Positions 1,285 to 63,300 of a stretch of 63,300 bases of DNA are shown here, piece after piece. Location: the IMG/VR virus record IMGVR_UViG_3300032280_000788, positions 1-63,300 of that record; one strand, written 5' to 3'. Origin of the DNA: a virus (lineage: Duplodnaviria; Caudoviricetes). The position numbers and the translations under genes were made by a program. The notes under the pieces were generated by a model. That model made no database searches. It was not told the DNA's origin and saw only the letters and a list, made by a program, of their open reading frames with translations. Numbering within the stretch: the first letter of the stretch is position 1; each line of letters begins with the position of its first letter.

Positions 1285-1289
1285 ACACT

Positions 1290-1586: not shown

Positions 1587-1634
1587 TTTTGGGGTCAACT
1601 GACCCAAAATCCGGTAGCGGCTGGCCTTTAGAAA

Positions 1635-1802
1635 AAACTATCCTACACGTTCCCTGCAAGGTTGAAAAGTATTTCAAAACGCGAAGGGGGTAATGTGTAG
1701 GATAGTTTTTTTACCCATTTTAACCCTTAAAACTATCCTACACATTACCCCCAAGGCAGTTTTAGTAAAAGAATATATATAGGGGTATGTGTAGGATAGT
1801 TT
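1635..1802. repeat. Four alternating-orientation copies of AAACTATCCTACAC, including a perfect 24-bp inverted repeat (1686-1709 / 1729-1752)
   Basis: Copies at 1635(+), ~1696(-), ~1730(+) and ~1789(-) in an AT-rich non-coding gap. Confidence 0.9.
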
Positions 1803-1844
1803 CTGGTTGACAGCCGTTCAAGACCCGTGTAAGCCGTTTCGCGT

Positions 1845-2303: not shown

Positions 2304-2304
2304 C

Positions 2305-2334
2305 TTGACATTGCCTAGCGAAACAGTTTATTTT
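2305..2334 (+). promoter_or_regulatory. Sigma70-like promoter
   Basis: TTGACA-N18-TATTTT just before the portal start. Confidence 0.5.
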
Positions 2335-2341
2335 TCGACCC

Positions 2342-35655: not shown

Positions 35656-35730
35656 TGGAGCCCCTTGACGGAGTCGAACCATCATATCAAAATTACAAAT
35701 TTCGTGTAATAACCGTTATACTAAAGGGGC
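35656..35730 (-). tRNA. tRNA-Thr(UGU)
   Basis: Acceptor GCCCCTT/AAGGGGC + T + CCA; anticodon arm CGAAA-TTTGTAA-TTTTG; T-arm GATGG-TTCGACT-CCGTC. Confidence 0.9.
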
Positions 35731-36075: not shown

Positions 36076-36273
36076 TTAGATGCAGTTGTCCTCAAGGAAC
36101 TCACGATTGAACATGGACTCAGTGATGTTTGGATGCCATGTCATGTAGGTCATGACTGTCCGGAACACTGTGACAAGTTCCTCTAGCGGGACATCACGCG
36201 GAAACGTGAACTCCATCTTGCTTCCTTCATGTGGGATCTCCACGCTGATCTTCATTCGTCGGTCGTTATTCAT
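36076..36273 (-). CDS. Hypothetical protein
   Basis: 65 aa; ATGA overlap. Confidence 0.65.
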   Translation of the reverse strand: MNNDRRMKISVEIPHEGSKMEFTFPRDVPLEELVTVFRTVMTYMTWHPNITESMFNREFLEDNCI

Positions 36274-37010
36274 GGTTGTGGATCTGGATATTTGAGGTCG
36301 CAGTCTTCACAGATGTACCCGTAAAGCCAATGATAAATTTTACGGCGACCACATTTGCATTCGTCGTCGATTTGAGATTCTGGTATAAGATCACAATTTG
36401 TGATGAAGATGCGGTATTCTGGTACAGTGTTTTCTTCAAGGTCGCAATCTGCGACCTTACGGCGGTACAAATCAATGGATTCCACTTCTATTCCCATAGC
36501 CTTTACTATGCTCGTTTCTTTCCATTCGCCAACTTGTTCATCAAAGAACTCGTCGCCTTCTTGAATGAACTCTCCTTCTTTAAGGACGCGGTATTCTGGT
36601 ACGGTGTCTTCGTCAAGCGGACCCCAAAAGTCTTCGTACGACGCGCCTACTTTCGGAGAACCTTCCTCAGTTTCGTCGTTAGTGGGTCGCTTGTTCCTGT
36701 CATCCTGTAGCTTGCCACATACCTCTGCATCCATAAGGATGTTCGCGCTACAGGCAATATGTGCCAGATGCGTGATACCGGATTCAGGGTCCAGTGATTC
36801 GCCGTCCCGCCATGCGTTCAAGTGGCGCAGGATTGCGTTGACATAAGTGCTGGCACATACGCCAGCCTCGCGCCAGTTCCACGGACCGTACTTGTCTGCG
36901 CCCAACTTGTGGACCCATGAGGTTTGTTCCATTGCATACGGAGGGACTAATCCCAATGGGGCTTTCAGGGAGCCCGCTTGCCCTTTGGGGTCATTGTATT
37001 GTGTTTGCAT
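36270..37010 (-). CDS. dATP/dGTP diphosphohydrolase domain protein (DUF5664-like) with a composite C-terminus
   Basis: K.PL.LVP...GADKYGPWNW...AILRHL.AW..GE..DPESG..HLAH. Confidence 0.85.
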   Translation of the reverse strand: MQTQYNDPKGQAGSLKAPLGLVPPYAMEQTSWVHKLGADKYGPWNWREAGVCASTYVNAILRHLNAWRDGESLDPESGITHLAHIACSANILMDAEVCGKLQDDRNKRPTNDETEEGSPKVGASYEDFWGPLDEDTVPEYRVLKEGEFIQEGDEFFDEQVGEWKETSIVKAMGIEVESIDLYRRKVADCDLEENTVPEYRIFITNCDLIPESQIDDECKCGRRKIYHWLYGYICEDCDLKYPDPQP

Positions 37011-52100: not shown

Positions 52101-55100
52101 AGGCCGAAGCAAAGGCCGAGAAGATCCTAGAAGAGAAAGGCTATATAGGTAAGCAGTTCCAGACCATGGGTCAGAAGCTCGGCTACGACGGAATCATTAT
52201 TGTGAACAACAATGGAGACGTGCTCGAGTTGGTCGCGTGGAGTCCGACATCGCTTAAGGATGGTTTCACAGACGCAAACATCGCACTTAGTCGCGCCGCG
52301 GTTAACGCTGGTGATGTAAAGTGGGATGTCGAAGGCATTGGGTCAACACCCACCCAAGCAGACATTAGTTATTTTGGTTTTGAGGTGCCGATGTTGCCGT
52401 CTGATTTTAGAAAGATGGTACCTAAAGGTGTTTCTGGCTCAGATACTAAAGAGTTTATTAAAAAGAAAATACAAGAGGGAGAAGCTATTGCGCCACCCTT
52501 CTTACGTGCGACATGGGACAAAGAACGTAAAGTATGGGTTGTTAATCCAGAAGAACACGAAGGTAGAAGCCGCACTGATGCTGCCGCTGAAATTGACCCC
52601 AGCGCACCAATGCCCGTGTCGATCATACTAAACAAAGGAATGCGAGCAAGAAGTCTTACAGATGAGATGCGTAATGCGCCTTTTGTTCTGGATAGTAATC
52701 TGGATGAAGTTGTATTTACACCAACACAAGCTGTCGCGCTTAGCAAGGCCGGGCTCGACACCGCGCCCAAGGCTTTCCGCGGCCGCATGGTCCAGCTGAC
52801 CCATTGGTCCAAGGCCACCGAGCTTAAGGAGACAGACCCAAGCGAGCACGGTAATGGTGGTGCTGGCAAAGAACTAGAGCGCCGCCGCGAGTACGGAGAC
52901 ATCTACATGCCGCGGACTTATTTCGGATACGACAAGTACCGCCGCGAGACTCAGGTTGGGGTCAACCGCTACAGCATGCTGGTTAACGGCGATACCCTGT
53001 ACGACTTGGACCGTGACCCACTAGACTTGTACCCGGACGCAGACGCCCTGCAGAAGGCTGGCTACGCTAGGTTCGATAACCGCGCTGCACTTACACTGCT
53101 CGAGAAAGCGGTTAAGGATGCAGGATTCAAGGGTTATGTTAGCACGTCTTACCAAGCCGGGGTCCTGTTCAATAAACAGAAGGTAACCAAGGTAAAGGAC
53201 GGCGACACTAGCTTGCCGCTGGCCGCACCAGCCAACATAGCCAAGAGCCCGCGCTACAGCAAGGCTCTGTATGCTATTACGAGCCCGCACGTTGAAAGCG
53301 CGTACGCGGTTAGCTTGGACGACCTGTTCATTAACAACGCCACCGGTGAATGGGACGCGGGTGGACCAGTTAGCCGCTTGTTCCGCGCCAGTGGAAACAT
53401 GGACCCTCGCTTGTTCGAGGCCGCCAAGTACCAAGAGCGTGGGTTGCGCCTTGCCAAGGCGCGGCTCAAGGATCTTACGCAAGCGTTCCAAGCCGCACTT
53501 AAGTCGGAACCAAACGCAGACTTGGACGACGTTAACTTGGCGCTCGGTAGCACAGAGCCAACCGTAGGCGCGGCGCAACGCGACGCTGCAGAAGCGGCCA
53601 AGCGCGCACGCATTGACAAGGCTAACGATGTATTTGATAGGGCCCCGGCAAACAAAGCTTACATGGACGCCGTCAATACGGCGCGTGCGAACTATAAGAC
53701 ACACCGCAGCAAACAAAAGTATACTGCAGAAGTTGAACAGGCTCGCGCTGATAGAAAAAATAGCCCAGAAATTCAGCAAAGGGACGCAGCAATTGCCGCG
53801 GCCGAGGCCCAGTACAGCAAGGATACCCAAGACGCGCGTGCACAAAACCTCGCGCCGGTACGCAAGGCGCAGCAGCAAGCACAGCTTAGGCTGGAGTTGA
53901 ACTCCCCGAAAACTGCAATTGCCATTGCCAATTTCCGCGTGGCCGTGGACAAGCTTAGCTCTGAACTTTCAGACGAGCTGGGCTCCGGTAATTCGCTTCG
54001 TGCAATTATTGACCAAAATCTTGGAGTCTATCTTACTCGCACATACCGCATCCATCAGGACGAAGGCTACGCGCAACGCGTACTGGAGGACAGCGAGTTC
54101 GCGCACCAGCGTGCGCTTGCCCGTAACTTCCTTGAGAAGAAGTGGATTGACAATACATACGAGCAGTGGCGCAAGGACGTTGCGTACGAGCCGTACACAG
54201 ACTCAGAAGTCATGTCGCTTGTGCGAGCTGAAGCGGCCTCCAAAGATGTTGGAACGCGAGAGCTCTACAAGTTTATTGACAAGCACAGCGCGACGCCAAA
54301 AGTATTTGGAAGAGCAACCAGCCGCACTGATCTTACAAGATTCATGCAGAAAGGTGAAGTGCCGCCGGAACTTCGAGTGCTGCTTGGCGAGGTACAGAAC
54401 CCAATTGAAAATGCGCTGCGCACTTACGGAAACCTCGCTCAGTTTCTTGGTACCCAGAGACTGCTCACGCAGTACACCAAGCTTGGCCTCGACAACAACT
54501 GGCTTGTAGCCGCCGAAGATGTGGAGAACGATCCAGTTAAGTACCGCGGGTATGCTCCGCTAGTAAGCACCACAGACACCAACGGCGGCGATCCACTATC
54601 CCAGTACTACGCGCAGCCCGAAGTTGTTTCTGCGTTCCAAACTATGTTCGCTCCGGCACCCGCTCCAGAAGGTAGCGATGCTAAAAAGGTTTGGGACTTT
54701 GTACAGCTTGGTGCTAGCAGAACAATTGGTGCCAGTATGGCGTTCCTTACACTAGGAAGCGCTGGCTTCTTTGTCCGCAACCTTGTGAGTATTCCAATCT
54801 TTGCGTCGGCTAACGGGTTTGTTCCTACGCCTAGCAACATTGTTACAGCGCTTAAAGGTATTAAACAAGTGTACGGCCGCGACATGGACGGACTCGGAGC
54901 CGACATGGTTATGTTGGGAATCTCTGAAGGCAGCATGGTTACACAAACTATGCGCGACTTTATCCGCGGAACAATTGACGACCCTGAGCTGATTACTAAT
55001 CAGATTGAGTCTATGCTCAAAGAGGTCGGCACCCCGGGCAACTTCCTTGCCAAGGCGTGGAAGGGCGCGAAAGTTACAGTCGATGGTCTTGCAACCCTTA

Positions 55101-56437
55101 ACGATCAAATTGATATGCTCTACAAGGCCGCTTACTGGGCGCACGAAGTTGATGTGCAGACCAAAGCTAACAAGTACAGGAGCGTTCCGCTAACACCACA
55201 GCAAATTAAGCAGGAGGCAGCGCGTGTTGTCAGGCTCACCACGCAGGGGCGCGAGCGCGTGGCTCCGATTGCTAAAGAGTTCCAACGCAGCGGGCTTGGC
55301 ATGCTGTTCAATAGCTTCTTCCGCTTCACCGCAGAAATGTTCCGCCTTCCAATCGCGACGATCCAGCTCGGAGTAGACGAAGTGAAGAGCGGAAACCCAG
55401 TGCTCGTGGCGAGGGGCCGTAACAGGCTAATTGGACTTGGCACTACTCTTTCTGTCCTTGGGTACGGTGCTCCGGCCCTGCTGAAAGAAATGTTTGAGGT
55501 CGAAGACGAGGAAGAAGAAGGTGTTCGGGCTGCTCAACCACCTTGGGCACGCGATTCCAACTTGTTCATTACATCAGACCCAGCGGAAGGAACAGTAACA
55601 ACATGGGATCTCACCTACATTAACGGATTTAGTCCGATCACAGACGCCGTCGGCCGCAGCATTCACCATGCAATCAACGGCCGCTGGGAGAAAATACCGG
55701 GGGTCATGGCTTCGTCCTTGGCAAAGAGTTTCCTGAGCCCTCAGATTGCAGTGGAGGCTTTCGCGCAGGCCGGTATGAACAGAGACGACCGCGGCGGTGC
55801 GCTGTGGTTGGAGGACGATTCATGGGGAACCAAAGTTGGCAAGACCCTGAAGCATGTGGCCAATAACGCGTTCAAGCTCCGCACCCCGTTCCAGCTCTGG
55901 AAAGCCTACGAAGCTTACACCAACGGCGGCGTCTACGACAAGGACGCACGCTTCGAGAAGGCCGCTGATCTTGTGATCAATGAGTTCAAGCCGTTCCGTA
56001 TTCATACCAATAAAACAGAACAGATGGCCAGACGCGCGTTCGGTGGTCTTAAACAACAAATGGACGCGGCCAGAGAAACTCTTGGTGAGCTTAAGAGCTA
56101 CGAGCAGCTAGACAAAAAGCGCGTGGACGAAGTTTATGATCGCTATGAAACATCGTTGATCGCGATTAACGAAAGGCTCAACAAGTACGCGGCCGGGTTC
56201 GGGAAGCTGGGAATGAGCTACGCTGAAATGGAAAGCCAAGCCGACGATGTGGGCATTAGCAAGCGTCGCTTCAAGGACGCCGTGCATTATGATCGGGTCG
56301 AAAGGTTTAAGCCTAGCGAAGACGCGTACAAGGACTACTTGCGCGTTGGCGGAGAAGAGAACGGTGCCGCGCGTGTGCAGTACCTTAACGAGGCCGTGTA
56401 CGCTAGGCCGCAGTACTTGAAATTAAACACAAAATAA
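43187..56437 (+). CDS. Giant polyvalent/internal virion protein (4416 aa)
   Basis: Uninterrupted ORF. Zincin HELGH (~47408); ADP-ribosyltransferase-like AFHGG...GSGYYVT...AKKYA...GYDGII...E (~51840-52260); LPD38-like C-terminus. Confidence 0.85.
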   Translation: MPQITKDPLGNDVELLNLTEWSDKNQKELNEDTLNQYAGYATGQFLRTGQKPEDFQDKLYSRLFQKGQQAGVFQPQDEAQTTQLFESFANKPLTDDAADLDLVSKSLLNTEPEKAARVADVYQRVKSGQPDPNLELDLEDVRKNIATPDVIQQARIGYAKERGLGFIDYPTGEPGKRDVWINTQATPDRKAVYDTLDLAQGIVDPRSAALAEEWIKTDPGRKVNRAEQRINSEIQSLLQERLSQSDPDSAFQQNMASAIEYATQSTEEFGTSVGAITKASTDRLAETKQVIVTPAAPVYAVKRVASNRVADAAIRSAYRNLKQTDPNNSLVTEFSEDQFTNAAQDYVLQRINTPTNQDDPTKNFVTLTDGTRAPLASAATLPKEKFNQAMDALGLDKQERAAASVIRTGWISANIKEITDALYDFESDEYVNFYEKNKDTYKNDVELTEAYLDQMKPDALKTFTAKTKGVGRSIPMAWGDLLFGAGAGASILVNSDAGEEFFTGLLTQNAEQEQRRGTYTKLYGSEMGLGYTLATQAAPLLADIAISRGAATLVKGGTKVAASANILARSAPVIGSTVRSAEDLMSKTAKTFIGNAIKPETKGFVSNYLKGFAVGGAEKSPAQILRAVRRDIEEKFVAGTARATQIGTGFARSAQGAYVNTSMGMRQETNPDGTPKYTEEQIKEAAITNALYSGGITALVEFGFGRVFGEGADVTAIGTANLRQIKSYSNRLTNALERGGFGGQELFDTVKQVSQEIVNKGWGDAVKQIPAEGLEEFTEEFTQNVVQNLLSDEQINFKQAFTQGLQAAVVGGVYGGAFGTTNKIGLRQADIARDTFAGTAQAIERDLMDRTVVKLQESGGSPQTIAALQDRMRVAQRRGQAISENIPVRAAKREIIDRLDATSEEPFEIPTAPAEPPAAKAPVTITRKAKKKAEELAVSEEELSLIQPSGTDKQGAPQITPNDVLAFVNRRTEQMGLDLNSLLPGPNITAPEGGFQLVGDEQADNPENRTFNDLSNRVVVIDGLRGRLRIEDEGVILDPEDGSTPFEVTPNKDLPVKDFEGFNTLLQEGAVVSPRRQAREVSEVTDGGQIVYGDTTYDLPEQPLIANVKKDDTGAVESMHMRVFNSKGLATWVYVAGDNVPKVETAYRTRGPEAVTNLASAVENAGRENTRRNIAAQTAKTKQSKQRRKDKRAKNNAPLVTDRGQRAAESAPDYRVANINKPNAPQQLVDEIRAVALQLGIDPEVFTDDAELFAMVAPDLAAGMDLETFTPQQKKQAIDNLLRNGNNPETLLEYLVSDELLPPVKRVERDSNLAALRARNSNQIRKHGIKPGADIKTVLESAARSATSKVHRQTAKELLMLGADSVPVSISYLPNNMGMAGAYLPQSNAVVINLASDNGGGALDALLHELGHAVTDRVVTAPRNDFEQQIRDRLMSLRAEYAERANAKYGNNMPPDLRYALEGRQRESEPFSELEGARELVAHFYGSARFREQLVELSPKGERNFVQKFIDLIASLFSGQPVASKQYKELAELIADLSKANQTIGANPYGRTVGRVAASRAGVNHENRVGPLFGVPNPHSRDDLEWILHQVQTLRYSDLSSEEINDIIVNQRFGMFTGENPNDTQFPEKENKEFNKKATQWLQDHGYQVIPIVGKYNRGENSFLVPGLTDQDAVDAANELVQDSVVTNTGMYFKGGMYHPRVGESINQPIGADDDFFSTLLDTNGDVTTIRVDYDFGTSLDSGIKYSKGDQQAAPVTKIARSLAAQGEFQVVEDREINKPMQFVDGRLAVNPALAEARYEAYDAEDTLDLQELDTRLAVAIGLANGSNGPDIQLSFEEVGLSPDSVIEQAAYNTLTNSDLQDLLKVKEQAKQFVASAYYHIALRNNGDNERLATAQNRVADLYRYLLRDGAGLPDAPEKFNALDISPVTMQLASRAASPAPIIRYSRAAVNIDPVQVRAQTKAGKAVGTRNPTSAKATEDGADPSNLVDLASLKRNPQAYRKNALLLLEYPIVAREFPELAKEYAEIRGAVLKEQDKAKANGIKITGAKDAAKKTLANYLGVTKAKVSGKMLEDAIENPESTFITKEQPGTIAGNKEARARNKALAEFNKNLDQIKKYEAEGAVLGTNSSKALKTYTDTLDKIAKDPEHPIAKQADEIYNTLIEVTKSNLRMLMDVFPSDIRDIANLWYDGANIIAQQFAGDNYSLEQSAAVLAVFSPQKDWFMNVELGKRTMEIWTADQEYEWDEAMSARWLMRGGEPELKENKDGTIGYAKGIKPDLDENGEHRTAENGMLLFHGWGSEKVKAKRQQAFERLQSLKGKKLKDLSTEQQAWFVRMRAETKYATSFPIVSPDGRFGTPSSSTNKKGVTKEIKLAWGTYGSIGKAIRILTAPPKTQMKVISDELGDQHKVRSFYNNIVDPQNADGHVTMDTHAIAALFWQAFSGNSREVGQNFGTANTATDSLTGVGGLYPAFAEAYRAVAAEYGMLPRQVQSITWEAVRMLFTARWKSKPENVNGVRAVWVRYQNNEITLEQAQTAVFAMATNGKDLATAVANSNDEELGLGFPSWADVTEGPAPAGVGIARSRALTQDDEAMFANSERRNTWSKAAKEFLGARVHPSEIPVIQGRYMRISDMPKALQDLATVAEVSKKLQRETDMAGNDILDIVTSPVETDTAWYDLDAAFRNKLRTEFDLRTQALDRIKKQTKGLYTDSEIITYAMNLPTVTDIEFEDTRIGIRLGVNLSIARSRAAQLDTDYLAAVEKGDTEAAQRMVDEALLDTDIIPTNLKRAFKSFWNAEGKINEAWNNPAQNAAKTRAAAKLTNQLDVQFENDMEASTRFWRNINELRRPVTYDAERNVIPLSKRFDLTKQDIRHSKATVATGQPYSTTAFHGGTYKQGVGALRPSKEGALGSGYYVTPSVDSAKKYAREGSLGAGVTGGSVSVFDVSLQNPLVFEYSQAYPANIFQALGVDPDKAEAKAEKILEEKGYIGKQFQTMGQKLGYDGIIIVNNNGDVLELVAWSPTSLKDGFTDANIALSRAAVNAGDVKWDVEGIGSTPTQADISYFGFEVPMLPSDFRKMVPKGVSGSDTKEFIKKKIQEGEAIAPPFLRATWDKERKVWVVNPEEHEGRSRTDAAAEIDPSAPMPVSIILNKGMRARSLTDEMRNAPFVLDSNLDEVVFTPTQAVALSKAGLDTAPKAFRGRMVQLTHWSKATELKETDPSEHGNGGAGKELERRREYGDIYMPRTYFGYDKYRRETQVGVNRYSMLVNGDTLYDLDRDPLDLYPDADALQKAGYARFDNRAALTLLEKAVKDAGFKGYVSTSYQAGVLFNKQKVTKVKDGDTSLPLAAPANIAKSPRYSKALYAITSPHVESAYAVSLDDLFINNATGEWDAGGPVSRLFRASGNMDPRLFEAAKYQERGLRLAKARLKDLTQAFQAALKSEPNADLDDVNLALGSTEPTVGAAQRDAAEAAKRARIDKANDVFDRAPANKAYMDAVNTARANYKTHRSKQKYTAEVEQARADRKNSPEIQQRDAAIAAAEAQYSKDTQDARAQNLAPVRKAQQQAQLRLELNSPKTAIAIANFRVAVDKLSSELSDELGSGNSLRAIIDQNLGVYLTRTYRIHQDEGYAQRVLEDSEFAHQRALARNFLEKKWIDNTYEQWRKDVAYEPYTDSEVMSLVRAEAASKDVGTRELYKFIDKHSATPKVFGRATSRTDLTRFMQKGEVPPELRVLLGEVQNPIENALRTYGNLAQFLGTQRLLTQYTKLGLDNNWLVAAEDVENDPVKYRGYAPLVSTTDTNGGDPLSQYYAQPEVVSAFQTMFAPAPAPEGSDAKKVWDFVQLGASRTIGASMAFLTLGSAGFFVRNLVSIPIFASANGFVPTPSNIVTALKGIKQVYGRDMDGLGADMVMLGISEGSMVTQTMRDFIRGTIDDPELITNQIESMLKEVGTPGNFLAKAWKGAKVTVDGLATLNDQIDMLYKAAYWAHEVDVQTKANKYRSVPLTPQQIKQEAARVVRLTTQGRERVAPIAKEFQRSGLGMLFNSFFRFTAEMFRLPIATIQLGVDEVKSGNPVLVARGRNRLIGLGTTLSVLGYGAPALLKEMFEVEDEEEEGVRAAQPPWARDSNLFITSDPAEGTVTTWDLTYINGFSPITDAVGRSIHHAINGRWEKIPGVMASSLAKSFLSPQIAVEAFAQAGMNRDDRGGALWLEDDSWGTKVGKTLKHVANNAFKLRTPFQLWKAYEAYTNGGVYDKDARFEKAADLVINEFKPFRIHTNKTEQMARRAFGGLKQQMDAARETLGELKSYEQLDKKRVDEVYDRYETSLIAINERLNKYAAGFGKLGMSYAEMESQADDVGISKRRFKDAVHYDRVERFKPSEDAYKDYLRVGGEENGAARVQYLNEAVYARPQYLKLNTK

Positions 56438-56477: not shown

Positions 56478-56741
56478 TTAACGGCTTTCAAGTGTGGCCT
56501 GAAGCCATTCGTTCATTTCTGTAGCTAGCTCGGGCATATCAGGATACAGTGACCCGAACAGCTGGTGGATCTTTGATGAAACCTCTGGGTCAACCGCGGC
56601 GCTTGCGCTACGCATTGTTCCAAACTTTGTTTTGTAGAACACATAAAGGAATCCTGAGTCCTTGTGCAACTCTACGCAAACGCGGTCGTGGTTGGCTCGA
56701 TCAAAGAATAAATGACTAACAATACAAGTATCACGAATCAT
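56478..56741 (-). CDS. Hypothetical protein
   Basis: 87 aa; last gene before the terminator. Confidence 0.6.
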   Translation of the reverse strand: MIRDTCIVSHLFFDRANHDRVCVELHKDSGFLYVFYKTKFGTMRSASAAVDPEVSSKIHQLFGSLYPDMPELATEMNEWLQATLESR

Positions 56742-56826
56742 GGCAGTGACATAATGATGTCGTAAATAGTAGCGGTCACCCCGAACAGGGTGGCCGCTAC
56801 TGTTATATACAACAGGTGCATATTTT

Positions 56827-57072
56827 TTATGCTAGTTGTGGCTCTGGTGCAAAAAAGCGTTGCACCACTTGGCGGACAATGCCGCTATGCTTACCGCGGA
56901 CTTGCTCGAGGAAACCAGCGGCTTCTTCGGCGTCGTCCAAGGTCTTACTGCACACCCCGTTGCGGAGGAGGATTCCCCCGTTGCGGAGAACACAATAGGT
57001 TCCGTTGCGGCTATTCTCGTGGTCAGCGCGCTCTTGCGCGTTCAGTCTTGCGATGGTATTAATGTTTTGCAT
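56827..57072 (-). CDS. Hypothetical protein
   Basis: 81-aa ORF with an A/C-rich leader. Confidence 0.65.
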   Translation of the reverse strand: MQNINTIARLNAQERADHENSRNGTYCVLRNGGILLRNGVCSKTLDDAEEAAGFLEQVRGKHSGIVRQVVQRFFAPEPQLA

Positions 57073-57098
57073 AATATTAGTTGTAGTCGTTTTTGGGG

Positions 57099-57257
57099 TT
57101 AGTGGGGGGGAGTTGGTACAGAGTAGTCTTCCGCGACAAGGTTGTCCACAAAAATAAATTCTGGGTCTTGAATATGCAGAAGATCTACGAGGTGGTCAAT
57201 GCTGGGGACCTGCTGGAGGTCCCCTGTTATGGTGGTGGTTAGTGTGTTGCCGATCAT
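57099..57257 (-). CDS. Hypothetical protein (52 aa; not in the ORF track)
   Basis: MIGNTLTTTITGDLQQV...; ATGA overlap. Confidence 0.5.
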   Translation of the reverse strand: MIGNTLTTTITGDLQQVPSIDHLVDLLHIQDPEFIFVDNLVAEDYSVPTPPH

Positions 57258-57490
57258 GGGATTCCTCTGGTGTTGATTTTACCACTCAAGTACGCGAGTT
57301 CCAGCGCTAAATTTAGCGCGTCGGTTTCGTTAATTGTGTGGCAATCTATTCCGTACTTTTCACACAACGGCATATCCAGTGTTTCGGTGTACGCTAGCCA
57401 GTTACGAATGGTCCTAACTTCGGCGGCTCCGTCGGGGCTATGCACGACCCGAACCGCGGGGTTCAGCGTGGACGCATAAATAGTTTTCAC
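57254..57490 (-). CDS. Hypothetical protein
   Basis: 78 aa; GTGA overlap. Confidence 0.6.
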   Translation of the reverse strand: MKTIYASTLNPAVRVVHSPDGAAEVRTIRNWLAYTETLDMPLCEKYGIDCHTINETDALNLALELAYLSGKINTRGIP

Positions 57491-57579
57491 AATGATGCTG
57501 GGGGGCTGGGGTCGTTTGGATCATTGCACATTAAAACTATTACAAGCACGATTAGTATGACAAACAAACTTGTGATCAT
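57487..57579 (-). CDS. Small single-TM peptide (30 aa)
   Basis: MITSLFVILIVLVIVLMCNDPNDPSPPASL; overlaps neighbours at both ends. Confidence 0.55.
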   Translation of the reverse strand: MITSLFVILIVLVIVLMCNDPNDPSPPASL

Positions 57580-57710
57580 GATTTTTTGAATAGTAATAGG
57601 TCTCTTCCAATCACCAAAGGAGTTGGTCTGCTTAAGGTTTTGCGCCCATTTTTTATTAGGTAAATGAAAGCGGCCTCTTGCGCCTTTAGTCTGCGTTCTG
57701 TGTATGTCAT
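57576..57710 (-). CDS. Small basic protein (44 aa; not in the ORF track)
   Basis: MTYTERRLKAQEAAFIYLIKNG...; ATGA overlaps at both ends. Confidence 0.5.
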   Translation of the reverse strand: MTYTERRLKAQEAAFIYLIKNGRKTLSRPTPLVIGRDLLLFKKS

Positions 57711-58282
57711 TTTTTGTAGCGGTTAGGGGTTTTCTTTTTGAACAACTCGAGCAGTTGTGGGACCAGCTCCCACTCCACGGCCAGCACGCAGTGATCGTGC
57801 AGGTCAAGGAACGCGCAGTGCTTAAGGTTATTCTGTTGCAACCAGAACGCCACTTGGTCCGATACCTCCGGCGACGACGCATCGTGGCTCCAAGGGAGCG
57901 TTACGCTCTTCTGGTACCGCGGCAAGGTCACCTTGACTCGGGTTGGGTAGTTATCTGTTGCGGGTAGCGTGCGGCAAACGACCGCGACTAGGTGTGTTAT
58001 GTTGTTATTCACTTTCTTTGTTTCTATTTTTTGTTTAACGTCCCAGACCGCGGGCTCGACTGGTTTCGAGACTCTGGATTCTGGAGACAGGATTTGTGTG
58101 TCGTTCGGCAGTTCGTTGTTGTACGCCTCGAGCGCGCTCGCGTCGCTGGACGCGCGCACCAACTTTCCGGTGGGGAAACACTGGTAGATTGAATTGGTTG
58201 GCTCCCCAGTAACAGGGCACCAACCATCCACATTCGATTTGCCGACAAGGATTGCTGTGGTTGCTTGTATTTTTGCTTTCAT
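57707..58282 (-). CDS. Hypothetical early protein
   Basis: Contains an LPATDNYPTRVK motif; start taken at ATG 58282. Confidence 0.65.
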   Translation of the reverse strand: MKAKIQATTAILVGKSNVDGWCPVTGEPTNSIYQCFPTGKLVRASSDASALEAYNNELPNDTQILSPESRVSKPVEPAVWDVKQKIETKKVNNNITHLVAVVCRTLPATDNYPTRVKVTLPRYQKSVTLPWSHDASSPEVSDQVAFWLQQNNLKHCAFLDLHDHCVLAVEWELVPQLLELFKKKTPNRYKK

Positions 58283-58284
58283 AA

Positions 58285-58926
58285 TTACCAAACATTTAGT
58301 GCTTTGAGCGCCGCGGCGTCGCGATCAAGAAAGGCTGGCCAAGCATGCTCGGCAAGTTTATTCAGCAAGTCTTTGGCGTTGCCGTTGGCGAACAGGACTG
58401 CGGTGGGCTGGACCTTCCACGGGTTGGGCTGTAGTCCGTTCCACGCGGCGTTGGCCAGCGGGTCCACGCTTAAGACTGGCGGCTTGGATAGCAGGCGGCC
58501 AGCGTGCTTGCCGTTCGAGGCCAGCGAGCGCCACACAGCCTCGATCTCGGAGTCGGTAAGCTGTGCGCGTTGGGCAATGGCTTTGACTATTTGACCGATC
58601 TGATCGCGGTCCACGCGAGCGGGTCGTTGCGGGGCGGGCGGGGCTTCCAGCGTTACCGGATCAGGAGCCGCTGGCGCGCTTTGAATGCGGGCTTGGACCC
58701 GTTCGACTCCGAACTGCTGGAGCACCTCGCGCAGGGCTTGCTCGGCCGCGGCCTTGGTCGGGCCCTTGGCGATTACCTGCCCGCAACGGGGGCTCGTAAC
58801 TGCCCAGCCCTTACCCGTTACCGAGCGGTGCAAGACCGCCGTGATTGGGGCGTCCAAAAGTAGGCCCCTGACCTTATAGAATCGGCCTTGTGAATAGGCT
58901 ACTGGTGTTTCTGTTTCTGTGTTCAT
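58285..58926 (-). CDS. Hypothetical early protein
   Basis: 213 aa ending DRDAAALKALNVW. Confidence 0.7.
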   Translation of the reverse strand: MNTETETPVAYSQGRFYKVRGLLLDAPITAVLHRSVTGKGWAVTSPRCGQVIAKGPTKAAAEQALREVLQQFGVERVQARIQSAPAAPDPVTLEAPPAPQRPARVDRDQIGQIVKAIAQRAQLTDSEIEAVWRSLASNGKHAGRLLSKPPVLSVDPLANAAWNGLQPNPWKVQPTAVLFANGNAKDLLNKLAEHAWPAFLDRDAAALKALNVW

Positions 58927-58946
58927 TGTTTTCTATTGGTTTGTGT

Positions 58947-59195
58947 TTAGACCACGAGGTCGATTCCGGCCAAGTGTAGCGATCGGAACTTTTGCTCGCC
59001 GCGGTCATCAATATCCCACGCGCGGACCACCGCGTAGCGCACGCCTTTCTTGCTAAACGCAACGCGGTTGACTTGGTCGATTTTGAATACTCGGACGCCG
59101 GTATTTGTCTGCCGCGAATCGAGCGCGATGTACCGAACAGTGCGGCCTACGAGCTCGCTTATGATTCTTTCAGTGCTTTTTGTTGTTGTTGTCAT
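58947..59195 (-). CDS. Hypothetical early protein (SH3/WYL-like beta fold?)
   Basis: ATG follows the conserved leader of hammerhead A; ends WDIDDRGEQKFRSLHL. Confidence 0.7.
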   Translation of the reverse strand: MTTTTKSTERIISELVGRTVRYIALDSRQTNTGVRVFKIDQVNRVAFSKKGVRYAVVRAWDIDDRGEQKFRSLHLAGIDLVV

Positions 59196-59221
59196 TGTTG
59201 TTGGAGCGGATTGGTTGGCTT

Positions 59222-59283
59222 CCGCGACCGCCCCGCCGAAGCGGTTTGGTTTCGACCCCAAGCCAACGGGTCTCATCAGGCGG
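59222..59283 (-). ncRNA. Type I hammerhead ribozyme A
   Basis: CCGC-CUGAUGA-GACCC/GGGUC-GAAAC-stem III (UUCG)-GUC^GCGG. Confidence 0.9.
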
Positions 59284-59430
59284 TTAACCGCGGTACTCTT
59301 CGTACGCGTCCTTGAGCTTATGCTTTATTAGATCAAACCGAACATCCTCAGTGTCACCAGCGACCAACTCAAGTAGGTCTCTCGCGATAGTGTAGATTTC
59401 CAGTACATTTTCGTCTTTCGTTTTTTCCAT
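59284..59430 (-). CDS. Small acidic protein (48 aa)
   Basis: MEKTKDENVLEIY...EEYRG, between hammerheads B and A. Confidence 0.65.
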   Translation of the reverse strand: MEKTKDENVLEIYTIARDLLELVAGDTEDVRFDLIKHKLKDAYEEYRG

Positions 59431-59455
59431 ATGTTTAGAGCGGATTGGTTGGCTT

Positions 59456-59517
59456 CCGCGACCGCCCCGCCGAAGCGGTTTGGTTTCGGCCGTTGCCACA
59501 CGGCCATCATCAGGCGG
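59456..59517 (-). ncRNA. Type I hammerhead ribozyme B
   Basis: CCGC-CUGAUGA-U-GGCCGU/ACGGCC-GAAAC-stem III-GUC^GCGG. Confidence 0.9.
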
Positions 59518-59809
59518 TTGGGTAACTTATGCCCTCGGGCAAGTCGTCCACAAGTATGATGCGGACTCCGGTGGCCTGCTCGAGCGTCTGGACAAGGCCG
59601 CGGATGCTGGTGCATGTTTCGCGAACATTGACCCAGTGCTCGGCGGTATCGCGGCCCCAGAAGGTGCGCTCGACGACCTCGTCACCATTGCGTATGCGCT
59701 GGTGCGCGAAGTCCCTGTGGTTGCCGCTGTATGGGGACTGCAGGAACAGGTCATAGGTTGGCGTGAAAGCGTCCTCGAGGGACAGCACATGTGATGTTTC
59801 TGTTTTCAT
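59510..59809 (-). CDS. Hypothetical early protein
   Basis: 99 aa; its stop is the UGA of the hammerhead B core. Confidence 0.7.
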   Translation of the reverse strand: MKTETSHVLSLEDAFTPTYDLFLQSPYSGNHRDFAHQRIRNGDEVVERTFWGRDTAEHWVNVRETCTSIRGLVQTLEQATGVRIILVDDLPEGISYPTA

Positions 59810-59812
59810 TGT

Positions 59813-60016
59813 TTAGTAGTGGGTTAAGTGGGTGATGTGGCTCTTGTAGAAGCCGCCTTGGTTGTACCATTGCAGGGTGCACTCGCCGTTGCTGTAGATC
59901 TCGACCAGTCGCCCGAAGCGGACCGGATAGAAGACCCCCTCAACGCGTTCTTTGGGCGGCGGCGGTAGAATCCTATAGGATTCTCCAACGCATAGTTTTA
60001 TAGGGATGTTTGTCAT
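59813..60016 (-). CDS. Hypothetical early protein (67 aa)
   Basis: ATG follows the leader of hammerhead C. Confidence 0.65.
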   Translation of the reverse strand: MTNIPIKLCVGESYRILPPPPKERVEGVFYPVRFGRLVEIYSNGECTLQWYNQGGFYKSHITHLTHY

Positions 60017-60042
60017 TTTTGTTGGTGCGGATTGGTTGGCTT

Positions 60043-60104
60043 CCGCGACCGCCCCGCCGAAGCGGTTTGGTTTCGGCCGTTGCCACACGGCCATCATCAG
60101 GCGG
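60043..60104 (-). ncRNA. Type I hammerhead ribozyme C
   Basis: Identical to copy B over the core and stems. Confidence 0.9.
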
Positions 60105-60107
60105 GGT

Positions 60108-60341
60108 TCAGCGCACCTTGAGGCTGTCAAGGTGCTCGAGCGTCTCTGGGTCGAAGTGCAACACATGGTTGCGGAACTCGGGGCCCAGCTTGTACGCGCC
60201 GTGGTGCGCTTGCTCTTCTTGCTCGGCCGTGAGGCCGGACACTTTCCACCCGGGAGGCAAGCCGCGCGGGTGAACAACGATTCGCGGGCCTTGCCCGCAG
60301 TAGTCTTGTAGCAGGTATGCTTTCATGGTTTCAGGATTCAA
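60108..60341 (-). CDS. Hypothetical early protein
   Basis: 77 aa from TTG 60341; ATG 60326 is an alternative start. Confidence 0.6.
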   Translation of the reverse strand: MNPETMKAYLLQDYCGQGPRIVVHPRGLPPGWKVSGLTAEQEEQAHHGAYKLGPEFRNHVLHFDPETLEHLDSLKVR

Positions 60342-60532
60342 GGTTCAGGGTTCGGATTGGGTGGTAGCTCGTCGTACGGGTCGTGCGGTAGCTCGTCGTA
60401 GTCTGGGTCGTGCGGTAGCTCGTCGTAGTCTGGGTCGTGCGTGTAGCTTGGCTGGCAGGCCGGACAACTGGTTTTGCAGTCCGGCCACCAACGGCTACCG
60501 CACAAGGTGCAGGCGAATGGTGCAGTTTTCAT
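60338..60532 (-). CDS. Zinc-finger protein with three HDP(D)YDELP repeats (64 aa)
   Basis: CTLCG...CPAC followed by 27-bp tandem repeats. Confidence 0.6.
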   Translation of the reverse strand: MKTAPFACTLCGSRWWPDCKTSCPACQPSYTHDPDYDELPHDPDYDELPHDPYDELPPNPNPEP

Positions 60533-60636
60533 CAGTGCAACAGGTGGCGGAGTAGGATTGCGGCCGCGATAAAAGCGGCCCCGCAAAGGGCGGAAATGCA
60601 AACGCCCAGCCAAATTGGTGGTTCAGGTATCTTCAT
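60532..60636 (-). CDS. Small single-TM peptide (34 aa; not in the ORF track)
   Basis: MKIPEPPIWLGVCISALCGAAFIAAAILLRHLLH; start/stop overlaps on both sides. Confidence 0.6.
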   Translation of the reverse strand: MKIPEPPIWLGVCISALCGAAFIAAAILLRHLLH

Positions 60637-60965
60637 TGTTCGGTGGTGGTTGATGGGCAGGCTCGCCCACGCCAGTTGTTGTAGTGCTCGTCGGTGGCCG
60701 CGTCAAGCGCGGGGTGGACTGTGTAGTCCGCCACCAGCTCTGCGGGTTCGTTCCCAAGGACGATGTACGCAGTGACGCGCGAGCCGTCGGTGTGGGCGAG
60801 CCGCACATGGCTTTCGTCGGTGGCGGTTATTTCGGCCACCGCAATCGCGATGGTGGAGGTGCTGACCCAGCCGTCGCCGTTGTTCACGGCGAGGGGCTCG
60901 AGCCCGTGTTTTTCAGCCGTGCGCAGGAAGTCGCGCACGGGGGTTGACCAGTTGTATTTTTTCAT
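60633..60965 (-). CDS. Hypothetical early protein (110 aa)
   Basis: ATG follows the leader of hammerhead D; VLGNEPAELVADY motif. Confidence 0.75.
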   Translation of the reverse strand: MKKYNWSTPVRDFLRTAEKHGLEPLAVNNGDGWVSTSTIAIAVAEITATDESHVRLAHTDGSRVTAYIVLGNEPAELVADYTVHPALDAATDEHYNNWRGRACPSTTTEQ

Positions 60966-60991
60966 TGTTTTTGGAGCGGATTGGTTGGCTT

Positions 60992-61043
60992 CCGCGACCC
61001 CTTGCGGGGTTTCGGCCGTTGCCACACGGCCATCATCAGGCGG
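60992..61043 (-). ncRNA. Type I hammerhead ribozyme D
   Basis: Same core; minimal stem III AC-CCC-GCAA-GGG-GU with a GNRA loop. Confidence 0.92.
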
Positions 61044-61125
61044 GGGGGGTGCGCGCCTCGCGGCCTGCGCCTGCTCTTACTCCTCCTCGGGTTGGGCGCG
61101 TGGCGCGTTCGATTCCTGGGTTCAT
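61036..61125 (-). CDS. 29-aa peptide with an RGGVRAGAGR motif (not in the ORF track)
   Basis: ATGA overlap upstream; its stop is the UGA of hammerhead D. Confidence 0.45.
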   Translation of the reverse strand: MNPGIERATRPTRGGVRAGAGREARTPPA

Positions 61126-61361
61126 GCTGTTGCGAGTTTGCTGAGTTTTGCCACGGCATCACGGATGCCGCCGTAGCCACTGTACGATTTCCCGCCGATT
61201 GGATCGGCACGGTCGATTGCATACCAGTCGCAGACGCTGGTGTATTTGCGGAGTCCGCATCCGGCGCGTTCGCTGATTGTCTTGCGCGTCACTTGGATGT
61301 TGTAGGAGTCCGTGATGTAGACCGCTGTGCCTTTGAAGCTGCTGATTTTGGTTGCTTTCAT
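61122..61361 (-). CDS. Hypothetical early protein (79 aa)
   Basis: ATG follows the leader of hammerhead E. Confidence 0.65.
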   Translation of the reverse strand: MKATKISSFKGTAVYITDSYNIQVTRKTISERAGCGLRKYTSVCDWYAIDRADPIGGKSYSGYGGIRDAVAKLSKLATA

Positions 61362-61387
61362 TGTTGTTGGAGCGGATTGGTTGGCTT

Positions 61388-61454
61388 CCGCGACGACCAG
61401 CACCCCGAAGGGGCTGGTCGTTTCGGCCGTTGCCACACGGCCATCATCAGGCGG
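61388..61454 (-). ncRNA. Type I hammerhead ribozyme E
   Basis: Same core; stem III GACCAGC-CCC-UUCG-GGG-U-GCUGGUC. Confidence 0.92.
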
Positions 61455-61866
61455 CTTGGCGCAGGCGGCGCGCGATGTGGCTCGCGCTGGTGCCTGCTAT
61501 GCTTTCGACCAGTCTGCCGCTGTCGCGGGTGGCGGTCCAATATACACCGGAGCCCTGCCCAGTCGCTCCGGTGAACCGGAAACGCCAGCTAGGAAACAGC
61601 GCGGTGAGAGCCGCGTGCTCTGCCCACTCAACGCTGTGGCCCACGGCAATATTCTCTATCCATGCGTCAGCGGCTCGTTGTGAGCGGCTACAGGCCCAGC
61701 GCAGGCCGCTTTGGTAAGCGTCAGCGTTTATGCTGGGGTGCAGGTACCAAGTGGACCTATGGGCGGCGGAGTGGATGACTAGGCCGCCGCGGCTCTTAAG
61801 AGCGGAGCAGGGTCTGTACGGGTGATTGGTTGGTTCCTTACGATTTTGGAATTGTGTTTGGCTCAT
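61447..61866 (-). CDS. Hypothetical early protein (139 aa)
   Basis: ATG follows the leader of hammerhead F; stop lies in the hammerhead E core. Confidence 0.65.
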   Translation of the reverse strand: MSQTQFQNRKEPTNHPYRPCSALKSRGGLVIHSAAHRSTWYLHPSINADAYQSGLRWACSRSQRAADAWIENIAVGHSVEWAEHAALTALFPSWRFRFTGATGQGSGVYWTATRDSGRLVESIAGTSASHIARRLRQAA

Positions 61867-61892
61867 TATTGTTGGAGCGGATTGGTTGGCTT

Positions 61893-61959
61893 CCGCGACG
61901 ACCAGCACCCCGAAGGGGCTGGCCGTTTCGGCCGTTGCCACACGGCCATCATCAGGCGG
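61893..61959 (-). ncRNA. Type I hammerhead ribozyme F
   Basis: As copy E with an A-U to G-U change in stem III. Confidence 0.92.
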
Positions 61960-62116
61960 CGTTGAATCTGTTAACAATGTTCTGAAGTTCGGCCCTGTAG
62001 TCGTCGCCACATTCGGACCCGAAGGATTCAAGGTCGTCAATGAGTCCACTCGCGAGGGCTAGCAATTCGGCCACGCAATTGGTGGCCACATCAATGGTTG
62101 TGTCAATTTTGTTCAT
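61952..62116 (-). CDS. Small acidic protein (54 aa)
   Basis: ATG follows the leader of hammerhead G; stop lies in the hammerhead F core. Confidence 0.65.
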   Translation of the reverse strand: MNKIDTTIDVATNCVAELLALASGLIDDLESFGSECGDDYRAELQNIVNRFNAA

Positions 62117-62142
62117 TATTGTTGGTGCGGATTGGTTGGCTT

Positions 62143-62208
62143 CCGCGACGACCAGCACCCCGAAGAGGCTGGCCGTTTCGGCCCTTGCTACGGGGCCTCG
62201 TCAGGCGG
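62143..62208 (-). ncRNA. Type I hammerhead ribozyme G
   Basis: CCGC-CUGACGA-GGCCC/GGGCC-GAAAC-stem III-GUC^GCGG. Confidence 0.92.
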
Positions 62209-62620
62209 GTTGTACAGCGGCAAGGAACGCCTCGTCGCTGGCGCCATTGGCTCGGGCGGCATCGAGCGCAACCTTGAGTTCGGCCGCGGCCTGCTCGAAT
62301 GTGACGAACAGGCTGTGCTTGTACTCGTATCCCTGCGGGTTTGGCCCGTCCAAGCGGCCGCGGCTCGAGGCCTTTTCGAGGACCGCGATCGAGTCCTGCT
62401 GAAGCACCACCGCGAGGTGGTGCGCGTGCCATCCGTCGGGGGCAAACCCTACCACAACAAGCGTGGGTTGCGGCTGGCCTTCCCACTCGCTTTCGTGCAG
62501 GATCGAGGCGTGAGCCTCAAAGCCCGTTGCGGCGAGCGCGGCGGCGGCGTCTTTACGGATGATTCTCTCGCCAGTCTTTTCGACCAGCAAGCCGATATTT
62601 AACTCGATTTCCTTTTTCAT
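62201..62620 (-). CDS. First early gene; possible SAM lyase-like protein (139 aa)
   Basis: LNIGL...W.G...PTLVV...LA..L.QDSIAV resembles phage SAM lyases; stop lies in the hammerhead G core. Confidence 0.55.
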   Translation of the reverse strand: MKKEIELNIGLLVEKTGERIIRKDAAAALAATGFEAHASILHESEWEGQPQPTLVVVGFAPDGWHAHHLAVVLQQDSIAVLEKASSRGRLDGPNPQGYEYKHSLFVTFEQAAAELKVALDAARANGASDEAFLAAVQPA

Positions 62621-62625
62621 TTTTT

Positions 62626-62712
62626 TGGTGCCCTCTGCCTTGGCCAGACTTGGGACTGGCACCGCGCGGCTTGCACCATTGCAGGCTTGTTCGCGGTGGT
62701 GGCATTGCACCA
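62626..62712 (-). ncRNA. Type P1 twister ribozyme
   Basis: P1 UGGUG/CACCA; C^AA; P2 UGCC/GGCA; T2 AC/GU; P3 CACCGCG/CGCGGUG; P4 CCAG/CUGG; L4 UCCCAAGU; 3' GAGGG (T1). Confidence 0.88.
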
Positions 62713-63169
62713 TGGCCCGTTACACTGCGGGCCAAAGATCGGGGACTGGGAAAGAACTGGGACCACCGCTTGGAACTCGCCGCCGGACCCCGTGCTGGGG
62801 CGGCGGCCGATCCGCTTTTGTGGGTGACCTTGCGGCCAACGAAAATCAATGTAGGGCAGGATCCGTTTTTGTCACCAACTTTTTTCGGAAAAGTTTGCAG
62901 GGTAGCACAAAACCCCTTGTTTTATAGCTTATTGACCCCGAAAATATTTTTCAAGAAAATGTCAAAAAGATGTTTTGTATACGCTTTTTTGCGAACTACT
63001 AGGAGTTTAGTATTTGAGCGAAATGTCGTTTTGTATACACCGCCAGAGCAAAGCAGGATGGTTGCATTTTGCGCAACTTTCCTGCGCCTAGCAACCAGCA
63101 ACCAGCGCCAAGACTACACTCGCCAAGTGTAGCGTTTCGGGAGCGTGTACCACCAGCCAACCAGCCCGG

Positions 63170-63300
63170 GCCGATCCACCTGCCGATCCACCTGCCGATC
63201 CACCTGCCGATCCACCTGCCGATCCACCTGCCGATCCACCTGCCGATCCACCTGCCGATCCACCTGCCGATCCACCTGCCGATCCACCTGCCGATCCACC
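63170..63300. repeat. 12-bp tandem repeat GCCGATCCACCT, ~11 copies (right end)
   Basis: Perfect copies running to the end of the window. Confidence 0.98.

Follow-up and report, generated by a model that had tools for sequence, protein, structure and literature searches.

The genome of an uncultured lake phage (Caudoviricetes; IMG/VR record IMGVR_UViG_3300032280_000788) raises the question of whether an operon can be divided into gene-sized mRNAs by ribozymes that lie between its genes. The window analysed was the whole record of 63,300 nt, which has direct terminal repeats and is rated 100% complete. A leftward operon of ca. 6.4 kb adjoins the terminal repeat, and its genes and ribozymes are all on one strand. 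An earlier interpretation of the bare letters (the sequence-only reading) had described this operon as punctuated by eight self-cleaving ribozymes of two classes. This description held: a twister and seven type I hammerheads (HH1 to HH7) are in the sense orientation to a run of conserved small genes, their helices covary, and the layout is the same in four related phages. We consider it probable that one transcript is cut at the eight ribozyme sites, with a re-pairing 5' hairpin and a uniform start context at the junctions and exchangeable gene cassettes between them. The ribozymes and the signals that frame them are as follows, in the order of transcription; the scores of the hammerheads are those of the covariance model R1 described below.

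62848-62875, minus strand: sigma-70-like promoter candidate (GTGACA-16 nt-TACATT) from a consensus scan, with a predicted start near 62841
62707-62841, minus strand: conserved, structured 5' leader of ca. 135 nt between the promoter candidate and the twister cleavage site
62627-62711, minus strand: P1-type twister with a long P3 insert; predicted cleavage between C62707 and A62706
62208-62143 (with the tail and CCGC, to 62127), minus strand: HH1; predicted cleavage after C62147; 65.3 bits
61893-61959 (61877-61959 with the tail and CCGC), minus strand: HH2; predicted cleavage after C61897; 71.3 bits
61388-61454 (61372-61454 with the tail and CCGC), minus strand: HH3; predicted cleavage after C61392; 72.7 bits
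60992-61043 (60976-61043 with the tail and CCGC), minus strand: HH4, with a short stem III and a GCAA loop; predicted cleavage after C60996; 88.5 bits
60043-60104 (60027-60104 with the tail and CCGC), minus strand: HH5; predicted cleavage after C60047; 68.8 bits
59456-59517 (59440-59517 with the tail and CCGC), minus strand: HH6; predicted cleavage after C59460; 68.8 bits
59222-59283 (59206-59283 with the tail and CCGC), minus strand: HH7; predicted cleavage after C59226; 49.3 bits
56443-56474, minus strand: intrinsic terminator hairpin of 13 pairs with a U-run, the only strong terminator

Seven hammerheads and a twister on one strand

Each of the seven elements reads CCGC-CUGA(U/C)GA-(U)-stem II-GAAA-stem III-GUC-GCGG. 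The pattern CTGANGA..GAAA..GTC had 13 matches with nested ones counted, against 1.25 expected, and none of 100 shuffles reached 13. A 23-nt piece comprising the junction and leader (GTCGCGG plus the 16-nt leader) occurred seven times on the minus strand and not at all on the plus strand. R1 was built from six copies with short stems, taken from this phage and its relatives. Applied to the full 63,300 bases with filters off, it found exactly the seven minus-strand copies of the sequence-only reading, at the positions listed above and with 49.3-88.5 bits, while the next match had 11.3 bits (E 0.57). The exact hammerhead junction was present in four further viral contigs of IMG/VR (G001 to G004; 38.7, 62.35, 64.6 and 38.6 kb), which gave 6, 7, 7 and 6 strong R1 matches, respectively, and which, together with the window, are referred to as the five phages.

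Judged by the positions that Perreault 2011 uses to define hammerheads (C3 U4 G5 A6 N7 G8 A9, G12 A13 A14, A15.1, U16.1 and H17), the core CUGANGA / GAAA / A15.1-U16.1 / C17 was unchanged across the seven copies, and cleavage is predicted after GUC. The variation was confined, as had been claimed, to N7 (C in copy 1, U in the remaining six copies) and to an extra U between A9 and G10.1 in copies 2-6. The natural hammerhead of the CChMVd viroid has an insertion at this position too, and a change of its A10 to U raised the rate 3-4-fold, U being the most active residue there (PMC3705267); by analogy, the U inserted after A9 is tolerated. The pairs adjoining the core (G1.1-C2.1, G10.1-C11.1 and A15.1-U16.1) were found in 7/7 copies. 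The CUGANGA/GAAA core was intact in all 33 hammerheads of the five phages (26 distinct), so that no related phage was seen to have lost it.

The helices vary around this core. The parse confirmed three types of stem II and three types of stem III among the seven copies, every one of them paired, and HH5-7 have a 3x3 internal loop inside a long stem III. Among the 26 distinct copies, 98.6% of 356 alignment cells were paired, and six of 14 pairs, located in stems II and III, had changed on both sides, in an alignment that was fitted to R1 and thereby favours structure; when the partners were slid by 1-3 columns as a control (33 hammerheads, 26 distinct), 22-46% were paired. Stem I is an open helix of only 4 bp (CCGC/GCGG), which showed only G-U changes within the five phages and compensatory changes (CCAC/GTGG and CCGT/ACGG) in other contigs. 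The minimum-energy folds of HH2 and HH3 were the hammerhead fold (z -3.4 and -3.95).

A search with the Rfam models by cmsearch, which had been suggested as a check, turned out differently for the two classes: the twister was found, at 44.5 bits and thus below threshold, whereas the hammerhead models gave a match, likewise below threshold, for HH7 only. On short stretches, HH7 gave a weak match to Hammerhead_HH9 (18.8 bits against a gathering score of 52), and the stretch with HH3 gave no hammerhead match. The likely causes are that stem I has 4 bp, that stem III is long and that a U is inserted. A rescan of nine loci rich in R1 matches at E<=0.01 yielded one hammerhead (Hammerhead_1, 28.4 bits; gathering score 34). 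Rfam hammerhead models thus largely miss a widespread phage subfamily of type I with a 4-bp stem I and a pseudoknot between loop II and the tail.

This gap, together with a stem I of just 4 bp, is what would be expected if the elements were inactive look-alikes of hammerheads, i.e. structured intergenic repeats such as binding sites for a protein or RNase, or stabiliser hairpins. However, no copy has lost any of the 13 positions that define the core, and the core is flanked by the correct pairs; the three stems covary across contigs, as does a tertiary pseudoknot (described below) of a kind shown to matter for activity; and the Hammerhead_1 match of 28.4 bits comes from a relative of these elements in another contig. 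We regard the look-alike explanation as very improbable.

The twister had been placed ahead of the first gene, and this is where Rfam twister-P1 (RF03160) matched at 44.5 bits (E 1e-7; gathering score 67.2), with the same element upstream of the array in 4/4 relatives at a likewise sub-threshold 38.1-45.1 bits. All 118 cells of its helices were paired (25-43% with slid partners), and nine pairs in P1, P2, P3 and P4 had changed on both sides, although all nine come from G002 and the alignment holds four distinct sequences. The element has ACC ... AAGU in place of the Rfam consensus GCC ... AAGC, a double change that would keep a pseudoknot pair, and its P3 measures 26 nt where the model expects 8; the low score is explained in part by these two features. 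The marks of twister-P1 considered were the two pseudoknots with the P4 loop and the conserved motifs GAGGG, GUCCCAAG and the AA that follows the cut. Pairing of CCC with GGG and of AC with GU is possible in every copy, in columns that are invariant and with partners assigned by analogy with the helix order in PMC6154101. The base preceding the predicted cut is C, where U is usual.

The promoter candidate was compared in four aligned phages, in which the hexamers keep their position and a TA...T pattern and the spacer sequence varies. The leader that separates this site from the predicted twister cut is conserved in four phages; RNAalifold gave 33 pairs in several hairpins, seven of them changed on both sides, and no Rfam family matched this stretch of ca. 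135 nt. At the other end of the operon, terminator-like sites as a class were no commoner than in shuffles (12 vs 12.1). An independent parse of the array reproduced the 5'-OH ends that the sequence-only reading had predicted (62706, 62146, 61896, 61391, 60995, 60046, 59459 and 59225) as well as its unit lengths of 560, 250, 505, 396, 949, 587 and 234 nt. The predicted tail unit, which had been put at ca. 2.8 kb, measures 2,783 nt to the terminator at 56474-56443, and no ribozyme at E<=1 and no R1 match was found in this ribozyme-free part of the operon. Overall, a polycistronic transcript that cuts itself into gene-sized units is plausible from the arrangement of these elements.

Anatomy of the junctions and the proposed processing

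Loop II of the hammerheads is complementary to the 3' tail AAGCCAAC, which lies just 3' of stem I, and could form a pseudoknot with it. The pairing comprises 8 bp in HH7, where loop II (GUUGGCUU) and the tail are perfectly complementary over 8 nt, 4 bp in HH2-6, and 2 bp in HH1. Perreault 2011 describes pseudoknots serving as the tertiary contact in all three hammerhead types (PMC3088659). The pairing was evaluated in a pool of the copies from the five phages and 101 model matches from 79 other viral loci (134 rows aligned, 129 parsed, 99 distinct). When each loop II was compared with its own tail, the longest Watson-Crick run averaged 3.65, compared to 3.24 for permuted tails, and 0/5,000 permutations reached the observed value, a statistic that ignores the relatedness of the copies. 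The excess was also seen within the 55 copies whose tail lacks the majority GCCA, and examples of covariation are UGGU/ACCA, GGAUA/UAUCC and GGUC/GACC.

In this phage, a CCGC 12 nt downstream can re-pair with GCGG after the predicted cleavage. The predicted 3' product has a hairpin of 5 bp flush with its 5' end (-6.5 to -7.0 kcal/mol, z -2.4 to -3.1), and its start region is unpaired. In the same pool (131 rows parsed, 105 distinct), an exact complement of the 3' strand of stem I was found 3-22 nt downstream in 75 of the 105 distinct copies, as against 13-26 of 102-106 in four control windows. Two of the three CCAC/GTGG variants of stem I carry CCAC downstream.

A third feature of the junctions is the position of the stop codon of the upstream gene, which is the UGA of the core in five of the seven copies here and in 24 of the 33 in the five phages (7 and 18 in the other frames). 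In the pool, 129 of the 134 rows had TGA in the core. Among the other contigs, the stop fell in the core in 45/96 cases vs 36 and 31 for the other frames.

These features also bear on the possibility that cleavage is conditional, with the downstream and upstream CCGC competing for GCGG and, in most units, a ribosome that terminates at the core UGA unfolding stem I and the core. The cleaved fraction would then be set by translation of the upstream gene or by the kinetics of folding, and the array would regulate the relative expression of the cassettes and not simply cut. The frequent use of the core UGA as a stop, the retention of the competitor in 75/105 copies and the non-hammerhead alternative that is the minimum-energy fold of isolated HH5-7 would all agree with such a control, and Perreault 2011 raises regulated cleavage for phage hammerheads (PMC3088659). 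On the other hand, the competitor is transcribed 12 nt after the complete ribozyme, so the active fold would form first; the enrichment of stops in the core is weak in the other contigs; no ligand-binding or sensor domain is apparent; and the prophage arrays tested by the same authors cut efficiently during transcription (PMC3088659). Regulation by conditional cleavage is therefore considered unlikely.

We propose instead that one RNA would be made from the promoter at ca. 62850 to the terminator and would then undergo eight cuts during or soon after transcription. The twister would remove the leader of ca. 135 nt, which would become a free structured RNA carrying a 5' triphosphate, and the twister body would remain as the 5' end of the first mRNA. 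In the hammerheads, the pseudoknot of loop II and the tail would stand in for the usual loop-loop contact. After cleavage, the hammerhead body with its 2',3'-cyclic phosphate would remain as the structured 3' end of the upstream mRNA, and the downstream mRNA would begin with 5'-OH-GCGG, which would re-pair with the CCGC 12 nt on to form the 5'-flush hairpin. This would be followed by an unstructured A/C-rich leader that has no Shine-Dalgarno sequence, with the AUG 30 nt from the cut. Since a Shine-Dalgarno-like motif was found at just 1/28 large open reading frames (ORFs) of this phage, such start regions in the ribozyme operon are normal for it. Re-pairing should render cleavage irreversible and shield the new end, and every cassette would receive an identical translation start context, which would make the junction a naturally occurring equivalent of the synthetic RiboJ insulator. 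Since the junctions do not differ, the units would be exchangeable among related phages.

A further step is conceivable, in which excised units dock end to end and are ligated into circular, exonuclease-proof phage mRNAs or are reassorted as cassettes at the RNA level. The 5'-OH end GCGG-AAGCCAAC would fit the 3' hammerhead body of its own unit since the junctions share the stem I strand, tail and hairpin, and joining could proceed by the reverse hammerhead reaction or by a host ligase of the RtcB type. If true, the array would be an RNA cut-and-join system, more than a cutter; we consider this far-fetched.

Several points weigh against the processing of one transcript by eight ribozymes, in addition to the single source of the compensatory twister pairs and the neglect of relatedness in the permutation test mentioned above. 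The promoter candidate is a consensus match only, and among 20 listed sequencing runs that contain part of the locus, none is recorded as RNA. The minimum-energy fold of the isolated element is a non-hammerhead one for HH1 and HH5-7, and the folding z-scores of HH5-7 are weak (0.19 to -0.61). The copies escape the Rfam hammerhead models at the gathering score and at E<=10 in 4.8 kb, and the twister stays under its own gathering score. The match of loop and tail in HH1 is just 2 bp. The tail and stem I are invariant in the five-phage family, the evidence for the pseudoknot and hairpin being drawn from other contigs, and the contigs behind these counts were chosen by a pattern that fixes part of the element. 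Finally, the downstream CCGC could compete with stem I prior to cleavage and slow the reaction.

Gene units among five related phages

The genes between the ribozymes are given below by unit, a unit being the stretch bounded by two neighbouring ribozymes; identities are to homologues in the four relatives.

62201-62620, minus strand: unit 0, gene A (139 aa), whose stop is the UGA of the HH1 core; homologues in 4/4 relatives (66-77% identity)
61952-62116, minus strand: unit 1, gene B (54 aa), with its stop in the HH2 core; homologue in G003 only (94%)
61447-61866, minus strand: unit 2, gene C (139 aa), with its stop in the HH3 core; homologues in 4/4 relatives (72-93%)
61036-61361, minus strand: unit 3, with gene D (79 aa, 61361-61122) and a possible ORF of 29 aa (61125-61036) that ends in the HH4 core
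60108-60965, minus strand: unit 4, with genes E (110 aa), F (34 aa, hydrophobic), G (64 aa, Cys-rich) and H (72 aa); E and H kept in 4/4 relatives (59-92%)
59510-60016, minus strand: unit 5, with genes I (67 aa) and J (99 aa), the stop of J lying in the HH6 core; homologues at 96-99% in three relatives (I) and two relatives (J)
59284-59430, minus strand: unit 6, gene K (48 aa); in G004 (92%) and G002 (57%)
56478-59195, minus strand: ribozyme-free operon tail, with genes L (82 aa), M (213 aa), N (191 aa) and ca. seven smaller ORFs; genes syntenic and 53-98% identical in the relatives

With identities of 53-99% among the five phages, the minus-strand ORFs are taken as real genes. None of the operon genes had a Pfam family above cut-off, and one faint PHROG match, of unknown function, was obtained for gene A. 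We infer early expression of the operon from its place beside the terminal repeat and from its ORFan content.

The hammerhead-bounded units vary in presence and order among the five phages, whereas all five are syntenic over the ribozyme-free tail, from gene L as far as the terminator. The genes whose presence or place varies are B, D, K, X and Y; two genes of the relatives, of 97 and 57 aa, are absent from this phage; and gene K occupies another place in the array of G004. Unit 3 (gene D) has no homologue in the four relatives and is thus a cassette unique to this phage. In G003, a lone hammerhead stands between C and E, with an upstream flank as in HH3 and a stem III and downstream flank as in HH4, as expected of a product of recombination between two copies. 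Among related phages, the units between hammerheads act like interchangeable gene cassettes.

Short-read contigs from four DNA runs break at every repeat. K (59296-59427) and D (61144-61275) were uncovered in three runs from other samples, with no long-sided bridging contig, and this lack of cover was not used as evidence. Some contigs from other samples join different repeats, with sides of only 26-31 nt; such joints are often false.

Such behaviour might have its cause in the DNA: the junctions, with ca. 80-115 bp of near-identity, may serve for homologous exchange of cassettes or be selfish repeats, to which the ribozyme adds little. The differences in cassette presence and order next to a syntenic, repeat-free tail, the hybrid hammerhead of G003 joining the contexts of HH3 and HH4, and the contigs that break at repeats or join different ones (the latter flagged unreliable) are in line with this. 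Recombination does not require a catalytic core, yet 33/33 copies keep it and the stems change by compensatory substitutions only. In addition, the orientation is always that of the genes, the design of hammerhead, short leader and start codon recurs in unrelated contigs with different leaders, and the array is headed in all five phages by a twister, which is not a repeat. An explanation mainly at the DNA level is hence distinctly improbable.

Inside gene N, a 25-nt coding stretch (58182-58206, minus strand) resembles the hammerhead tail and leader, with 12 nt in common (AGCCAACCAAT...); it may derive from a junction that has been lost, or the likeness may be due to chance. A tRNA-Ser (58646-58723, plus strand) antisense to gene M was called by ARAGORN and not by Rfam, and for that reason is probably a false positive. 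A tRNA-Thr (35656-35730, minus strand) was called by both.

The gene that converges on the ribozyme operon, with the terminator hairpin common to both, is the following.

43187-56437, plus strand: a single ORF of 4,416 aa with Pfam matches to DUF7178, DUF3293 and, weakly, ART-PolyVal

By these domains, the product looks like a polyvalent protein. The idea that it is an N4-like virion RNA polymerase that transcribes the operon was dropped in view of the same Pfam matches. A search for related loci with its C-terminal 599 aa led to one relative, which was already known. Elsewhere, this phage encodes tail proteins, a family A DNA polymerase (best match among cultured phages only 26% identical), a primase-like protein, a helicase and a PD-(D/E)XK nuclease, along with an amidase and a lysozyme. 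A 246-aa protein (36270-37010, minus strand) contains the N-terminal domain of dATP/dGTP diphosphohydrolase (PF18909, E 5e-29), which hints at manipulation of the nucleotide pool; no partner of PurZ size was present among ORFs of at least 150 aa. The direct terminal repeat consists of a 12-nt tandem repeat (GCCGATCCACCT) in ca. 11 copies at 1-135 and ca. 11 at 63170-63300, and the relatives have another short tandem repeat, GCTGGTT-like, upstream of the operon.

Known ribozyme arrays and the wider occurrence of the design

The early polycistronic RNA of phage T7 is cut between genes by RNase III to give stable monocistronic or short mRNAs with structured ends. T7 relies on a host protein enzyme for this, whereas here the RNA itself would cut, leaving 5'-OH and cyclic-phosphate ends.

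The sequence-only reading had implied that a gene-delimiting array of two ribozyme classes is new, and this part did not stand. According to the excerpted text of Perreault 2011 (PMC3088659), several close-set hammerheads in prophages lie on either side of single genes or of short blocks of genes, whose identity varies, and it was proposed that long phage transcripts are processed to gene-length mRNAs; native polycistronic fragments of ca. 2 kb from C. scindens, A. caulinodans and A. tumefaciens were cleaved as expected. Likewise, twister, hammerhead and other self-cleaving ribozymes share gene neighbourhoods in bacteria and phages (Roth 2014 and Weinberg 2015, as cited in PMC6765202), and arrays of 5-7 occur in other contigs. 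In that 2019 review, the reason for the shared neighbourhoods is given as undetermined and the role of ribozymes in bacteria and phages as largely elusive (PMC6765202). The ribozyme-punctuated arrangement itself has therefore been known since 2011; what this locus adds is the junction design, the behaviour of the cassettes and the gap in Rfam coverage.

Compared with the prophages as described in those excerpts, the present case is the complete 63.3-kb genome of an uncultured phage with terminal repeats. Its seven copies are all of type I, with one common stem I, tail and leader, and the array is headed by a twister, with stops inside the core and a downstream CCGC able to form a 5' hairpin. 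It differs from the twister-hammerhead neighbourhoods, as far as the review summarises them, in that the two classes have fixed places in five phages, the twister at the 5' end only and the hammerheads between cassettes only. Among literature titles and abstracts, in which these points were not searched by name, there was no 5' hairpin switch, stop in the core or hammerhead cassette exchange.

HHphage of the haloviruses HF1 and HF2 is a hammerhead 13 nt upstream of the first ORF in an early polycistronic transcript, and a 5' end was mapped <=3 nt from its cleavage site (PMC3088659, in the same excerpts). It is a single ribozyme with a variant core from an archaeal virus, in contrast to the array described here. 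The synthetic element RiboJ, a hammerhead followed by a hairpin, raised expression 2-10-fold, with higher levels of transcript and protein (PMC6206723). Judging from the excerpted report, the likeness lies in a terminal hairpin that stands upstream of the start after cleavage and in 5' ends that are identical whatever is upstream. RiboJ is an engineered derivative of the sTRSV ribozyme, a single copy of which is placed behind a promoter, whereas this array is natural. Unlike that of RiboJ, the hairpin here uses the 3' strand of stem I itself, so its formation competes with the ribozyme fold.

Genome contigs were also scanned for the pattern, which has a chance of ca. 3e-10 per position and thus a few hundred matches in 596 Gb. 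Since many are expected by chance, single pattern matches were left uncounted. Among the 80 loci listed, 21 had a model match at E<=0.001. The design nonetheless occurs widely. Three other viral loci had 6, 7 and 4 model matches, downstream of each of which lie a short conserved leader and the beginning of a small ORF, with a GGAGG-type motif in the leader at two of the three loci, and three Clostridia contigs had 7, 7 and 5. A piece of 14 nt from the junction lacked specificity, as it occurred in 119 stretches; 79 of these stretches were used as a negative control for R1, the best of which scored 22.6 bits. In the phage locus of another IMG/VR contig (L184), a stretch of ca. 3.5 kb (193-3672) contains two type I hammerheads, two twister-sister ribozymes (88 and 79 bits) and a RAGATH-5 match just under threshold (44.5 vs 50).

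The locus is an unusually clean natural example of such an array, with a complete genome, one operon, eight ribozymes in fixed roles and four relatives. It offers design rules that can be tested: a 4-bp stem I with a pseudoknot, a re-pairing step that would act as a lock and as a 5' cap, a stop in the core and identical junctions, by which cassettes can be gained and lost. If these rules are borne out, phage hammerhead arrays would be natural RiboJ-like insulators that make early genes plug-and-play.

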